Shown in pieces: positions 17,756-27,695 of a stretch of DNA of 58,560 nucleotides. The DNA is from Chloroflexota bacterium (GTDB lineage Bacteria; Chloroflexota; Dormibacteria; CF-121). The translations under genes and the position numbers were made by a program. The notes under the pieces are model-generated. The model did not search any database. It worked only from the letters and a program-made list of their open reading frames with translations, and had not been told where the DNA came from. Each line of letters starts with the position of its first letter. Position 1 is the stretch's first letter. The stretch lies in the NCBI GenBank assembly GCA_005881215.1, contig VBDZ01000003.1, positions 1 to 58,560 on the forward strand, written 5' to 3'.

Positions 17756-20020
17756 TCAGGCCGCTGTCGTCAGGTCGATCGCCTCGGGCACGGCCCGTTG
17801 CGGGATGGTGAACGTGAAAGTGCTGCCCAGCCCGGGCGAGCTCTTCACCCAGATCCGTCCGCCGTGCATCTCGACCAGCTGGCGAGAGATCGCCAGGCCG
17901 AGGCCCGTCCCCTGGTACTTACCGCTGATCCCGCTCTTTCCCTGTTGAAAGCTTTCGAAGATGCGCTCCGCATCCTCGGCCGGCACCCCGATGCCGGTGT
18001 CGCGCACGTTGATGCGCAGCTCCGCCCCCTGGCGCTCCGCCGTCACCCGGACGCTGCCGGATTCGGTGAACTTGATGGCGTTACCCAGCAGGTTCAGCAA
18101 CACCTGCTTGAGCTTTGGACCGTCGGCAAAGACCCGCCCCACCTCGGCGGAAACGCTGGCGCTAAGCTCCAGCCCCTTGGTCTTCGCCAGCGAGCTGACG
18201 CTTTCGACGCACTCCGAAATCAGGGGCTCGATGTCGACTTCGCCGCGGTGCAGCTGCGCCTTCCCCGCCTCCAGTTTCGAGATGTCGAGCAGGTCGTTGA
18301 TCAACGCCAGCAGGTGCTGACCGTTCTGGGCGATGATGTCGACGTCCTGCCGCTGCTCACGGGTGAGGACTCCCCCGTCCCCTTCGAGCATCAGCTGGGA
18401 GAAGCCGAGGATCGAGTTCAGCGGCGTGCGTAGCTCGTGGCTCATGTTGGCAAGAAATTCCGACTTGTGCTGATTCGCGCGATGGAGCTCGGTATTGACG
18501 GCCCCTAACCGGGCCGTCTGCTCGGTCGCCAGGTGGAACAGGTGCGCCTCCTGGATGGCGGTGGCGGCGTGCTGCGCGAACAGCGTCAGGAGCTCGATGG
18601 TGTTGCGGTCCAGCGGGCGCCGGTGGTACACAGCGAGCACCCCAAGCAGCTGGTCGCCGACGACGAGCGGGAAGCCGGCGAACGCCTGGATGCCTTCCTC
18701 CGCCATCCATGGGCTGAGTCCGACCTGACGGTGATTCGCCGGGTCGTTGGTGATGATGGGCACCCGCAGCTCGGCCACCTGGCCGACCTCACTCATGCCG
18801 CGCTCGACCCGGCTGGGGACCGGCGGGGCATTCCGGGTGGTGTGATGACCGGCTCGTCGCCAGAGCGCGCCGTCGCTCGGCTCGAGCAGCCACACCTGCG
18901 CCGCCGCGAAGCCGAGATTGCCGGTGAGCGCGCTGGCCACGATGTCGAGCAGCTCCGGCTCGAACAACTTCTGGTTCATCTGGTCGATCGATTGGTTCAG
19001 TAGCTCCAGGCGACGGGCGCGTTTCTCGGTCTCCTCGAAGAGCCGGACGTTCCGCAGGGCGACGGCCAGCTGCTGGGCCAGGACCTCGAGCGCCTCCACT
19101 TCCCATTTCGTCAGCCGGCGCTGATCGTCGCGAGTCTGCAGATGCAGGACGCCGAAGACCTTCCCATCGAGGATGACCGGCGTTCCGAACACGGCTGCAT
19201 AACGTGTCTGGTTGAGCGCCGGCGCGTCGAACAGGGGCGGCCGGGTGAGCATCGTAAAGCGCCGCTCCCGCACTGCCCGGCCCACGATCCCCTCCCCGGC
19301 GGAGATCGAGGATCCCTCGATGGCCTCGGGCAGGCCGACCGCCGCTCGCAGGGTGAAGACGCCGCGATCTTCGTCCAGGAGCACTACCGCGCCCGAGTCC
19401 ATCTGGAGCAGCTCCATACCGCAGCGGATGACGGTGTTCAACATGTGCGCCACGTCCAGCTGGCCGACCAGCTCGCCGAGCACGTCGCGGAGCTGCTCGG
19501 TCTGGTCGAGGCGCCGCCGCGTGCCCCGGATCTCGGTATTCATGGCCCGCACCGCCGCCCCCAGGCCGGTGATGACGGCGACGGTCGGGATCGCTCGCAG
19601 GACGGCGTCGCGCACCGAGATGGCCAGGCCCAGGTCGCTCGTCTGGAAGAGGATGATGCCACTGGTCAGAAACAGGCTGGTGCCGATCCCACCCCAGAGG
19701 TCGAACCGGAAGATCGCCTCGGCCGCCACCAGCGCGTAAAGCAGGTAAGGAAGGCTCGACGACGGCGTAGCGAACAGCAGGATCCAGCCGCTCACCACCA
19801 GGTGATCGAGTACCAGCAGGAGGACGGCCATCGGTCGGGCGAAGCGAGGGACCGCCTTCTTCTGGATGGCCAGCGCGGCGACCCCGTTGCACGCCCCCAG
19901 GAGTCCGGCCAGCACGACGGTGATCGGCACCGAGGCGGAGGGCAGCCAGAGCAGCAGGCCGAAGGGAATGGCCAGCGCGACGAAGCGGAGCCTGACGAAT
20001 TGGCGATCGAGGGCAGTCAT
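17756..20020 (-). CDS. Membrane sensor histidine kinase: TM sensor, two GAF domains, HisKA and HATPase
   Basis: About 5 TM; two GAF-like segments; EFLANMSHELRTPLN, NLLGNAIKFT, DTGIG, GTGLGL. Confidence 0.93.
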   Translation of the reverse strand: MTALDRQFVRLRFVALAIPFGLLLWLPSASVPITVVLAGLLGACNGVAALAIQKKAVPRFARPMAVLLLVLDHLVVSGWILLFATPSSSLPYLLYALVAAEAIFRFDLWGGIGTSLFLTSGIILFQTSDLGLAISVRDAVLRAIPTVAVITGLGAAVRAMNTEIRGTRRRLDQTEQLRDVLGELVGQLDVAHMLNTVIRCGMELLQMDSGAVVLLDEDRGVFTLRAAVGLPEAIEGSSISAGEGIVGRAVRERRFTMLTRPPLFDAPALNQTRYAAVFGTPVILDGKVFGVLHLQTRDDQRRLTKWEVEALEVLAQQLAVALRNVRLFEETEKRARRLELLNQSIDQMNQKLFEPELLDIVASALTGNLGFAAAQVWLLEPSDGALWRRAGHHTTRNAPPVPSRVERGMSEVGQVAELRVPIITNDPANHRQVGLSPWMAEEGIQAFAGFPLVVGDQLLGVLAVYHRRPLDRNTIELLTLFAQHAATAIQEAHLFHLATEQTARLGAVNTELHRANQHKSEFLANMSHELRTPLNSILGFSQLMLEGDGGVLTREQRQDVDIIAQNGQHLLALINDLLDISKLEAGKAQLHRGEVDIEPLISECVESVSSLAKTKGLELSASVSAEVGRVFADGPKLKQVLLNLLGNAIKFTESGSVRVTAERQGAELRINVRDTGIGVPAEDAERIFESFQQGKSGISGKYQGTGLGLAISRQLVEMHGGRIWVKSSPGLGSTFTFTIPQRAVPEAIDLTTAA

Positions 20021-20035
20021 CCGAGCCCCCGAAGC

Positions 20036-22483
20036 CTAGGCGGCCTGGGTGGTTTGAAGGTTGTTGATCATCTCGAGGAAGCGGTCCTTGCCGAAGTCCC
20101 CCTTCTGGATGATCGACTGGATATTCCCCTGCAGGCGCTCGCGATCCTCGCTGGTGATGTTTTTCGCCGTATAGATAAGGATGGGGATCTGGCTGGCGGC
20201 CGGGTCCTCCCGCAGTTTCGACACCACTTCGAAGCCGTCGACATCCGGCATCATCAGATCGAGGATGATCAGGTCAGGCTTCTTCTTCAGAGCCAACTCG
20301 AGGCCGGCCTTGCCACCGTCGGCAACGATGACCTCCATGTTGAACGGCTTGAGCATGGCCTTCACCAGCCGGATGTTCTGCGGGTCGTCATCGACGATCA
20401 GGATCGATGACGGCGTTTTCTTCCCCCGCTTGCCATCGGCCAGGAGGTCGAACTTCACCATCATCTGCAGCAGCTGCTGCCGGTCGATCGGCTTGGTGAG
20501 GAAGTCGGCCTGACCGATGTCGAACGGCAGCGATTCTTTGTTGATCTTTGAGGTGAGTACGATCGGAATGTCCTTCGTCTTCGACTCGCGACGCAGGTCG
20601 TAGACGAGGCCACTGCCACCGTTGGGCGGCAGCTGGGTGTCGATCAATACGGCGAGCGGCTGCAGCTGCACCGCTTTGCGTAGCGCCTCCTGGGCACTGG
20701 CCGCGATCACCACCTCGTAGCCCGCGTGGCTGAGGAACGGCTCGATCCGCTCCTTGACCGCCGGGTCGTTGTCGGCCACCAGGATGACGGGCGGCTTGCT
20801 GCCGCCACCCACGGGTGGCATCATCTGGACCGGCCGCTCCTGGATGCCGGCCTCCTGCTTGGCGAACTCGATCAGCTCGCGGATGTGCTCGACCAGGCGC
20901 TTGCCACTCTCGTTGATGTGGGCCACGAATTCCCGACGTTCCTCCGGCGTCGTCTTGTTCGCTTTCTCGTCGAGCAGGATCTCGGAGAAGCCGATGATCG
21001 CATTGAGCGGCGAATTGAGGTCGTGGCTCTGGTCGTAGATCACCCGGAACTTCGCCTCGAAGTCGCGCTTCGCCTGGGTGAGCGCCGGCGCCGCATCCTT
21101 GTTCTTTCCACTAGCCGAAAGCTCGGTCTTGAGCCCGTCGAGCTGCGCCTGCATGGCGCGCTTTTCGGCCTCGTAGCGGGCCAGCACCTGGCTGGTTGGC
21201 GGACCGCTGCCGGCGGCCTTGCGGGCCTCCTCCAGCTGGAGCTTGAGCGAGGCCTTCTCCCGATGCCAGGCCTGCTCCAGCTCCTTCGCCTCGTTGGCGC
21301 GCCGGCTGTGGAGCTCGTTGGTCTCGGCCATCATCTCTGAGAGCTGCCCCTGGACCCGCTCCAGGTCGACTTTCAACTGGTTCTTCTCGGAGGTGAGCCG
21401 CTGCTCCCGGCCCGTCCACGCTTCGGCCTTGCGGCCGGTTTCGCCGGCGAGATCCGCGTGCAGCGCCTTGATCTTCTCGTAGTCCTGCTGCATGGCCGCC
21501 AGCTTCGCCACCGCGTCCTGCACTTGCTTCTTGAGTCCGGCTTTCTCCTCGGCGACGGAGGCTTCCCGGCTCTGCCAGTCCTTCTCCAGCGCCTTGACCT
21601 TGGTCAGCAGCGCCGAGCGCTCGTCGCTGAGCCGCTGGAACTCCGCCTCGGCCTTGTCGAGGTCGGCGGCCTTTTTGCGCGCCTCGTCCAGCTGTCCCTG
21701 GAGCAGCTTGCGATCCGCCTTGAACTGGGCGTCCGCCGCCTGGCTCCCCTGCTCCAGCCGGGCCACGTCGGCGATCAGCCGCTGGCGCTCGGCCTGCCAT
21801 TTCTCGCGTGCCGCCTTGAGCGGCTCGATCTCCGCCTGCACGGCTTTGAGCTGTTGCTGCAGCTGGGCGCTCAGGTCGGTCAGCCGGGTTTTGTCCTGGG
21901 TGAGCTGGGCCCGGGCCTTCTGCCATTCCTGTTCCAGCTCCGCCTGCTTGCCGACGGCGGCATCGCGGTCCTTGAGCAGGGTCTCGCGGTCCATCGCCCA
22001 CTGGAGCTGAGCGGACTGCAGCGTGTCGAGGTCCTCCTGGGCGAGCTTGAGGTCGGACCGGATCTTCTTCTGGTCGTTCTCGAATTTTTGCGCCGCCTGC
22101 ATCCGCTCCTGTTCGAGCTGGCGGAGCTGGCCGCGCCGCTCCTCGTCGCGGCTCTTGGATCGAGTGACGTCATCCTTCAGCCGGCCGAGCTCGACCTCGG
22201 CTCGGTCGTGACTCTGCTGCAGGTCCTGGTGCCCCTGCTTGAGGGCCTCATGCTGGTCGAGCAGCGCCTGGCGATCCATGGCCCACTGCAGCTGCGCGTT
22301 CTGGAGTTCGTCCAGCTCCTGCTGCTTTTCGGCCAGCTGGCGCTTGGTCAGGGCAAGCTCTTTCTCCTTCTCTTCGAGCTGGCCGCCGATGTCTTCCTGC
22401 AGCGCCTGGAGATGGGTGATGAACTCCTGGTTCTGTTGCAGGATGTCGGCGAACGACTTCGCCTTGGGCGCTTCGGGAGCCAT
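20036..22483 (-). CDS. ~490-aa coiled coil, HisKA/DHp without HATPase, two receiver domains
   Basis: Heptad-rich K/E/Q/L N-terminus; QSHDLNSPLNAIIGFSEILL; a short linker leads directly to two receivers (LIDTQL..TKP; ILDLMMP..QKG); no N/G1/G2 boxes. Confidence 0.88.
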   Translation of the reverse strand: MAPEAPKAKSFADILQQNQEFITHLQALQEDIGGQLEEKEKELALTKRQLAEKQQELDELQNAQLQWAMDRQALLDQHEALKQGHQDLQQSHDRAEVELGRLKDDVTRSKSRDEERRGQLRQLEQERMQAAQKFENDQKKIRSDLKLAQEDLDTLQSAQLQWAMDRETLLKDRDAAVGKQAELEQEWQKARAQLTQDKTRLTDLSAQLQQQLKAVQAEIEPLKAAREKWQAERQRLIADVARLEQGSQAADAQFKADRKLLQGQLDEARKKAADLDKAEAEFQRLSDERSALLTKVKALEKDWQSREASVAEEKAGLKKQVQDAVAKLAAMQQDYEKIKALHADLAGETGRKAEAWTGREQRLTSEKNQLKVDLERVQGQLSEMMAETNELHSRRANEAKELEQAWHREKASLKLQLEEARKAAGSGPPTSQVLARYEAEKRAMQAQLDGLKTELSASGKNKDAAPALTQAKRDFEAKFRVIYDQSHDLNSPLNAIIGFSEILLDEKANKTTPEERREFVAHINESGKRLVEHIRELIEFAKQEAGIQERPVQMMPPVGGGSKPPVILVADNDPAVKERIEPFLSHAGYEVVIAASAQEALRKAVQLQPLAVLIDTQLPPNGGSGLVYDLRRESKTKDIPIVLTSKINKESLPFDIGQADFLTKPIDRQQLLQMMVKFDLLADGKRGKKTPSSILIVDDDPQNIRLVKAMLKPFNMEVIVADGGKAGLELALKKKPDLIILDLMMPDVDGFEVVSKLREDPAASQIPILIYTAKNITSEDRERLQGNIQSIIQKGDFGKDRFLEMINNLQTTQAA

Positions 22484-22848
22484 CAGGCCGCCTTCCGACC
22501 TTGCTGGAGGTAGCGCTCGACCGCCGCGCGCATGGCATCGAGGTGGGCGCTCATCGCCCCCAGCTGATCGACCCGTTCCTGTTCGAGCTGGCGGAGCTGT
22601 TCGTGCCGCTCGCTGTCGCGCTGGTTGGCGTGCCGCAACTCCTCCTGGAGGCGGGCGATTTCGGCCTGGGCCTGGTCGTGGGAAAACTTGAGCTCATCGA
22701 GTTCCTTTTTGCGCGCCTCGTGCTCGTCGACCAGGCCCTGGAGATTGGCGACCAGCTCCTGGTTGAGCTGCAGGATCTGCGTGTAAGGATGGCTGGACTT
22801 CGACAGAGACTCCCCCATTCGGCTGGGCTTCGAGGGCTGCTCGCTCAT
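22483..22848 (-). CDS. 121-aa coiled-coil protein paralogous to the N-terminus of the 815-aa neighbour
   Basis: MSEQPSKP..YTQILQLNQELVANLQGL..SHDQAQAEIARL..RDSERHEQLRQLEQER..; TGATG overlaps at both ends. Confidence 0.85.
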   Translation of the reverse strand: MSEQPSKPSRMGESLSKSSHPYTQILQLNQELVANLQGLVDEHEARKKELDELKFSHDQAQAEIARLQEELRHANQRDSERHEQLRQLEQERVDQLGAMSAHLDAMRAAVERYLQQGRKAA

Positions 22849-23202
22849 CAGGCGGTCTTCAGCCGTCCCTGTTGCAGGTAGCGGGTTACCTCCCCGGGGA
22901 GGCCCTGGGGATCGACCGGCTTGGGGATGTAGCCGTCGCATCCGGCGCCCAGGATCTTCTCCCGGTCCCCGGCCATGGCATGGGCGGTCAGCGCCACGAC
23001 CACCACCCCGGCCAACCGCGCGTCGGAGCGGATCTTGCGGGTAACCGCCAGGCCGTCCTCCCCGGGAAGCTGGATATCCATCAGGACGATGTCGGGCAGC
23101 TCGCGGGTCATTTCGGCCAGGCATTCCGCGCCGCTGCCCGCCTTGCGCACCGAAAAGCCCTTCTTTTCCAGGAGGAACTGGGCCAGGCGCAAATTTACCG
23201 GG

Positions 23203-27695
<4,493 letters not shown>

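Follow-up and report, generated by a model that had tools for sequence, protein, structure and literature searches.

A small coiled-coil protein of a Dormibacteria two-component operon that probably arose by tandem duplication across a coupled gene junction

In the DNA stretch considered here (the window: 58,560 nucleotides (nt) of contig VBDZ01000003.1, assembly GCA_005881215.1, from a Chloroflexota bacterium of the Dormibacteria), a 121-codon open reading frame (ORF) lies on the minus strand between the gene for a CheY-like receiver and the gene for an 815-amino-acid (aa) protein, within a six-gene operon of two-component signalling genes. The locus raises the question of whether such a short frame is a gene at all and, if so, from what it descends and what its product might do among kinases and receivers. 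The initial annotation had read it as a free-standing paralogue of the N-terminal coiled coil of the 815-aa protein, and had proposed that a spurious longer ORF hides it. The two genes, whose products are called the small and the large protein below, and the part of the large protein at issue are as follows.

22483..22848, minus strand: small gene, 121 codons plus TGA; orthologues of 111-126 aa, and of 170 aa in one genus; ratio of nonsynonymous to synonymous substitution rates (dN/dS) 0.17; GC content at third codon positions (GC3) 0.86.
20036..22483, minus strand: large gene, 815 aa (Pfam, AlphaFold2, colinearity with the 170-aa form of the small protein).
22013-22483, minus strand: head of the large protein, residues 1 to about 157, the region taken to be paralogous to the small protein.

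The 121-codon frame is a genuine protein-coding gene under purifying selection. It runs from an ATG at 22848 to a TGA at 22485-22483, exactly the boundaries first proposed, and its median pairwise dN/dS of 0.17 is similar to that of the first 130 large-gene codons (0.20), the receiver gene having a value of 0.05. A 213-aa ORF in the same frame (22483-23124) had been listed around it. The extension of this longer ORF is not coding, because its GC3 is 0.46 (GC content at codon positions 1, 2 and 3 of 0.88, 0.74 and 0.46 versus 0.75, 0.35 and 0.86 in the small gene), because it overlaps the receiver gene in another frame, and because the open stretch upstream of the small gene ranges from 14 to 118 codons among orthologues. 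All orthologues, moreover, begin at an ATG or GTG that overlaps the receiver stop codon, so that the view of the gene as hidden inside a spurious frame is borne out. Public gene calls at this locus disagree (111, 121 or 192-295 aa), and the automatic names of the homologues are "hypothetical" or generic coiled-coil labels without meaning.

The similarity between the small and the large protein is extensive. Residues 37-93 of the small protein align to residues 72-128 of the large protein without gaps and with 28/57 identities (49%; composition-adjusted BLASTP, E 2e-13). The Smith-Waterman score of the pair is 149, where 2000 shuffles of one or the other partner give 54 +/- 7 (z about 13), and control comparisons reach 64 with the reversed rod and 68 with rod residues 131-470. 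When profiles of the two families are compared by hhalign (97.5% probability, E 5e-12), residues 18-95 of the small protein are matched to residues 7-130 of the large protein in an alignment that bridges a 46-residue gap in the small protein and takes in both motifs quoted in the initial annotation, including the ILQxNQE block. In the whole 2.79-Mb assembly, matches to the small protein fall in two places only, namely its own gene and the head of the large protein. These alignments indicate that residues from about 18 to 109 of the small protein are an old paralogue of the first 157 or so residues, the head, of the large protein. The matches of both motifs to the adjacent protein thus reflect true homology, and the proposed paralogy is supported by BLASTP, Smith-Waterman and hhalign as well as by the colinear 170-aa form described below; in the shuffle statistics that had been suggested as a check, the similarity exceeds what coiled-coil composition would give.

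That the similarity is mere coiled-coil composition, or that the frame is a non-functional remnant or an annotation artefact, would fit the generic coiled-coil names in public annotations and the noise-level matches in Pfam, NCBIfam and PDB. This explanation is, however, refuted by the composition-adjusted BLASTP E value, by the excess over shuffles together with the far lower scores against the reversed and the remaining rod, and by the dN/dS value; with roughly 300 homologue clusters of conserved length in addition, we regard it as extremely improbable. Searches of the curated families of Pfam and NCBIfam with the small protein give sub-threshold coiled-coil matches only, and a profile search of PDB gives E values of 0.04 or worse, to unrelated coiled coils. 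The candidates rejected in this way are Phage_scaffold (PF06810; 19.9 bits versus a cut-off of 35), GAS (Pfam; 16.2 bits versus 32.3) and SMC/Rad50/SbcC, the last suggested by the JGI automatic annotation "chromosome segregation ATPase" (TIGR02169, 20.9 bits versus 729), in which the resemblance is to coiled-coil arms only.

The large protein itself consists of a coiled coil (residues 1 to about 470), a HisKA/DHp domain (residues 482-546) with His487 and no HATPase domain, and two receiver domains. It had initially been described as a scaffold or large rod. The coiled coil stands, but a purely structural role does not, since a DHp domain (HisKA without ATPase) and two receivers follow it in Pfam.

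The small protein is an undescribed accessory family confined to one Dormibacteria family. Its homologues form about 260-300 clusters at 90% identity, nearly all of 111-126 aa, from soil metagenome-assembled genomes (MAGs) of Candidatus Dormibacteraeota or "Chloroflexi", and when long-form and divergent members were added to the profile, the search still yielded only those roughly 300 clusters. Within the family of the window in the Genome Taxonomy Database (GTDB), the small gene occurs together with a match to the large head in 40 of the 43 genomes, in all 13 high-quality ones and in all five genera; the three genomes in which the pair is missing are 70-89% complete. In a 201-genome sample of the phylum, which takes in 16 listed genomes of other families of the same class, just five genomes match (that of the window included), and all belong to this family. 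In a tree of the 57-residue module, the 18 small sequences form one clade (97/94 support). Because no small sequence groups with the large protein of its own genome, the duplication is old and has not been followed by concerted evolution.

How the head came to stand alone is suggested by the two ends of the small gene, where it meets its neighbours.

22848..23237, minus strand: receiver gene, CheY-like, single domain, 129 aa (Pfam Response_reg; GTG at 23237; orthologues called at 129 aa).
22846..22850, minus strand: junction 1, TGATG; the receiver stop overlaps the small-gene start by 1 nt.
22481..22485, minus strand: junction 2, TGATG; the small-gene stop overlaps the large-gene start by 1 nt.
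22486..22521, minus strand: tail of the small protein, residues 110-121 (VERYLQQGRKAA), apparently a copy of the C-terminal tail of the receiver.

The last 14 codons of the receiver gene (22851-22892) encode EVTRYLQQGRLKTA. In every genus except g124, the tail of the small protein follows the consensus V-[DE]-R-Y-[LM]-Q-Q-G-R-K-A-A and the receiver ends in E-V-x-R-Y-L-Q-Q-G-R-L-K-T-A; in g124, the most divergent genus, the tails are ELDGFLQQGRVRAA and EVRRYLHQGRLKSA, similar to the consensus of the others. In six frames the genome translates to 5.58 million residues, among which the hexapeptide YLQQGR is present at just two sites, the C-termini of the small protein and the receiver, and of 3.06 million 14-mers in the genome the one that scores best with the small tail is the receiver tail (BLASTP of the two proteins: 8/9 identical, E 0.002). 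Because synonymous positions vary freely in both tails (CAG/CAA, GGA/GGG/GGT, CTG/CTC/CTT, TAC/TAT), selection acts on the peptide. A QGRxAA ending was also considered as a mere coupling signal or ribosome-binding site of all overlapping junctions; this was rejected, as the QGRAA end of the first kinase of the operon is not conserved in orthologues, unlike the receiver and small tails. When representatives were searched with the receiver for tail-bearing outgroups, the best 150 matches were multi-receiver proteins, and the motif appeared only in the orthologue P0300.

The other line of evidence comes from genus g124 (genomes L043-L045), in which the small protein has 170 aa and keeps a 43-residue insert and a second segment that are deleted elsewhere. 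Residues of the large protein from about 5 to about 157 have colinear counterparts in this form, and the common 121-aa form is therefore a copy of the head with two internal deletions.

Taken from these comparisons, the gene probably originated in a single tandem duplication across the receiver/large junction. In the ancestor of the family, a segment made up of the last 14 or so receiver codons, the stop-start overlap and large codons 1 to about 157 would have been duplicated in frame, converting the order receiver-large into receiver - (head + receiver tail) - large. The copy would then have specialised by loss of the 43-aa insert and by gain of an almost invariant C-terminal segment of 30 residues. 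One such event would account for the homology next to the initiator, the receiver-like tail, the identical junctions and the 170-codon long form (roughly 157 + 13). If so, the small gene offers a clean and datable case of a new bacterial small protein made by tandem duplication over a coupled gene junction, in which one junction-spanning event yields a ready ORF with its start, its stop, its coupling signal, the interaction domain of one neighbour and the tail of the other.

The remaining parts of the small protein, from which its possible mode of action can be considered, are the following.

22789..22848, minus strand: residues 1-20, variable N-terminus predicted to be disordered (pLDDT <50 for residues 1-15; orthologue N-termini).
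22741..22785, minus strand: motif A, residues 22-36 (YTQILQLNQELVANL), homologous to large residues 11-25 (FADILQQNQEFITHL).
22570..22740, minus strand: module B, residues 37-93, homologous to large residues 72-128.
22522..22569, minus strand: residues 94-109 (DQLGAMSAHLDAMRAA), nearly invariant (invariant columns; 170-aa form; heptad register).

AlphaFold2, supplied with a 57-sequence alignment, predicts a disordered N-terminus followed by a single uninterrupted helix from residue 21 to residue 120 (pLDDT 89), and in a heptad scan the register can be followed without a break from residue 22 to residue 89. In the light of this model, a single helix of about 100 residues would have to pair with something, most simply as a parallel coiled coil. 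Asn29 in motif A lies at a predicted heptad "a" position, and its equivalent in the large protein is Asn18; Asn at "a" is a classic specifier of parallel in-register dimers, the textbook case being GCN4. The polar core residues of the small protein are N29(a), H43(a), R46(d), H57(a), D78(a) and R81(d). Conservation extends beyond the core in two places. Residues 25-32 in motif A are conserved around the helix and not only at a and d, and the R-D-x-E-R...QLRQLEQER end of module B shows conservation on every heptad face in both families. In a column comparison, nearly every position of residues 85-92 (L-R-Q-L-E-Q-E-R) is conserved in both, R86 (b) being the sole position just under the 80% threshold, in the small family. 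Positions b, c and f would be exposed to solvent if only two strands were coiled together, and their conservation suggests a further partner or a bundle of higher order.

Conservation in the small family peaks, however, not in the paralogous region but in residues 92-121, which the earlier reading of the gene as a coiled-coil paralogue passes over. The invariant positions are R92, D94, Q95, L96, G97, A98, A101, H102, L103, A105, A109, R112, Y113, R118 and A121. Within residues 94-109, which are weakly colinear with large residues of about 144-158, the invariant residues G97, A98, A101, A105 and A109, all with small side chains, lie on outer faces; the last 30 residues as a whole have diverged strongly from the rod.

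The explanation that we favour, although we would put its chances at about even, is that the small protein is a junction-duplication mosaic that acts as a free head and modulates the assembly or the partner choice of the relay. This role is suggested because the small protein carries both epitopes of the large head. It would present the same two all-face-conserved surfaces, ILQxNQE and RDxER..QLRQLEQER, and would take whatever site the large head takes, whether on a third partner or, within a bundle of higher order, on the head itself. The REC-like tail, together with the small-residue face near the C-terminus (G97, A101, A105, A109), would link it to the recogniser of the receiver tail. On balance, the relay of kinase, receiver and DHp-REC-REC protein would be modulated in its assembly or in its choice of partners. 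That the protein is a bacterial microProtein born of the junction-spanning duplication, which bridges, or competes between, recognition of the receiver tail and of the head, and in this way sets the assembly or partner choice of a multi-kinase phosphorelay, is a tentative and rather doubtful proposal.

The main rival of the free-head explanation is direct heteromeric pairing, the functional reading of the initial annotation (co-polymerising partner, cap or competitive inhibitor), in which the small helix would zip onto the large head as a cap, a co-polymer or a dominant-negative microProtein. Pairing of this kind would be expected from true paralogy of the pairing domain, from the Asn that the two proteins share at an equivalent "a" position, and from translational coupling and strict co-occurrence (40/43 genomes); it has a bacterial precedent in H-NST, which antagonises H-NS via heterodimers (PMC7074111). 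The cores of the two families also differ in a suggestive manner: the small protein has R46(d) and L50(a) where the large protein has L81(d) and H85(a), and mixed pairs could be preferable to R46-R46'. However, a count of net attractive g-e' charge pairs in parallel in-register dimers from 24 genomes, which is a weak test, shows no preference for the heterodimer (small-small 1.58, large-large 1.67, small-large 0.46). Furthermore, because a 43-46-residue insert separates motif A from module B in the large protein of most genera, the two segments cannot both pair in register at once, and direct pairing leaves the conserved outward b, c and f residues and the C-terminal 30 residues unexplained. 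We consider this alternative possible, if somewhat unlikely.

It is also conceivable that the shared tail is the functional core, as a docking peptide or as a degron (for example an ssrA-like one, for an AAA+ protease such as ClpX that recognises a C-terminal Ala-Ala) which would bring both proteins under common control, and that the helix is a dimerising stalk. The peptide is conserved in both proteins in all genera amid free synonymous change, is unique in the genome, and belongs to the 30 residues that are the most invariant of the small protein. The small protein does end in KAA, but the receiver with the same motif terminates in KTA or KSA and not in A-A, and there the segment closes helix alpha-5 of the receiver fold rather than forming a free peptide. 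Since Ala-Ala ends are in any case frequent in this high-GC genome, and the conserved head epitopes would be left unexplained, such a function for the tail is distinctly improbable.

Several observations weigh against the account preferred here, that of a junction-duplication mosaic acting as a free head. With respect to origin, no genome was found in which the receiver is followed directly by the large gene, the presumed ancestral state, and for this reason the duplication is a parsimony argument. The long form of g124 lies on a long, poorly resolved branch of the module tree and may reflect gene conversion or a second duplication. The tail of the small protein also resembles large residues 163-173 (AMDRETLLKDR), at about 4/10 and thus far more weakly than it does the receiver, and could in principle have descended from them and then converged on the receiver tail. 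A GGAAGG lies 8-13 nt before the ATG of the large gene, and the codons for QGR-K-AA may partly double as the ribosome-binding site of the next gene. With respect to function, the AlphaFold2 model is that of a monomer and is uninformative on oligomer state or orientation. As for expression, three metatranscriptome runs of the same soil study gave only spurious pieces of 18-40 nt, and the locus is present in the DNA runs only.

Two further resemblances of the small protein were examined and rejected. Its "SHD" motif, which is present in the large head as well, is reminiscent of the H-box SHDLNSPLN, which might suggest a DHp or HPt role; there is, however, no HisKA or Hpt match, the model is a single helix, and position 57 in the motif varies among H, F and Y, Tyr being the most frequent (41%). 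A kinship of motif A with the signalling helix that precedes the H-box of the hybrid kinase (ILQVNRQLEQ) is not significant (BLASTP E 1.6).

In structural terms the small protein corresponds to what has been defined as a microProtein (PMC9638782): it is below 20 kDa, consists of one domain akin to that through which a multidomain protein interacts, and lacks HisKA and Response_reg. The closest bacterial likeness is to H-NST, the oligomerisation domain of H-NS alone, which is likewise short, corresponds in its larger relative to the N-terminal oligomerising coiled coil only, and is thought to act through it (PMC7074111). H-NST, found on islands of pathogenic E. coli, was gained by horizontal transfer, its gene lies apart from hns and its target is a DNA-binding silencer, whereas the small protein is vertically inherited, is coupled to its parent in a two-component operon and bears the tail of a third gene. 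Eukaryotic microProteins such as Id, which acts on bHLH proteins, and LITTLE ZIPPER, which acts on HD-ZIPIII proteins, are similarly below 20 kDa, with a single interaction domain and without the catalytic or output domains of the parent. Their targets, however, are transcription factors, and binding and negative regulation have been shown for them by experiment, whereas the parent of the small protein is a DHp-REC-REC phosphorelay protein. Should the small protein indeed titrate or bridge the head of this DHp-REC-REC protein, the microProtein and H-NST principle would extend to two-component signalling.

A receiver and a long coiled coil are also combined in signalling, without a DNA-binding output as here, in FrzS and AglZ of Myxococcus and in other coiled-coil signalling scaffolds, although in FrzS and AglZ the receiver is N-terminal, a DHp domain is absent and a stand-alone paralogue of the head is not known. 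They are not known to be related in sequence to the present system, no search aimed at such a relationship having been made. Sda, KipI and FixT are small accessory proteins that modulate phosphorelay flux by protein-protein contact; neither their sequences nor their folds are related to that of the small protein, and none is known to be a paralogue of part of its own target. Within a six-gene multi-kinase relay found throughout one family of the Dormibacteria, abundant and uncultured bacteria of soil, the small protein would be a previously undescribed accessory component.

The operon in which the small gene is embedded is as follows.

17756..27695, minus strand: six-gene operon (Pfam, gene order, orthologous assemblies).

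Its genes encode, in order, a GAF-GAF histidine kinase of 688 aa, a hybrid kinase of 809 aa with several receiver domains (Pfam), the receiver, the small protein, the 815-aa protein and a GAF-GAF kinase of 754 aa, the hydrophobic N-terminus of which is probably membrane-spanning. The same six genes occur in identical order in the independent assemblies L003, L005 and L006. As a whole, the six genes form a relay that lacks an output domain.

The small gene overlaps its two neighbours in the same manner in most genomes (L008, L026 and L043-L046 versus L001 and L016-L041). In the genus of the window it is TGATG or TAATG (1 nt) at both the receiver/small and the small/large junctions, and genera g2, g124 and g125 have 4-nt overlaps (ATGA, GTGA or TTGA) on either side; genome L042 is mixed. 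The large gene of g2 begins with TTG or GTG. At the other end of the receiver gene, the start is most likely the GTG at 23237, six bases after AAGGAGG, so that the receiver gene overlaps the 3' end of the hybrid-kinase gene by 35 nt (23203-23237, minus strand). The Arg-rich C-terminal tail of the hybrid kinase (RRRTGRDRRQGLDRRR) is therefore encoded over the ribosome-binding site and the first codons (KVLIVEDNP) of the receiver gene, and the tail may be conserved on account of this overlapping gene and not for a role that it plays itself.

The 121-aa and 111-aa forms of the small protein differ by a 10-residue indel in the disordered N-terminus (22789-22848, minus strand), which resembles a local duplication (..KPSRxGExxS / KSSRSY..). 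In the large protein, 31 sequences of which are 85-96% identical overall, the DHp domain and both receivers (residues 482-815; 20036-21040, minus strand) are almost invariant and the rod is much more variable; the residue at H+4 of the H-box is Ser. The AlphaFold2 model of the full large protein, which is of low confidence (pLDDT 59.8), has helices at residues 11-264, 273-423 and 431-457, followed by the DHp domain and the two receivers. His78, His85 and His92 of the large protein recur at a seven-residue spacing at predicted "a" positions (QHEALKQGHQDLQQSHD; 22208-22252, minus strand) and are 85-100% conserved, and this core histidine ladder could make the large head sensitive to pH or metal. 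In g124, the large protein of L043 contains extra tandem copies of a similar segment in this region, with three EH-x-TLKKG repeats, and in a subclade of the genus of the window an entire module of about 50 residues is duplicated in the large protein.

Synteny continues downstream of the operon (L003, 13174-16322, and likewise L005 and L006; about 14.4-17.7 kb in the window), where a GDT1-family membrane protein, an OmpR-type response regulator on the opposite strand and several genes of 46-68 aa are encoded.

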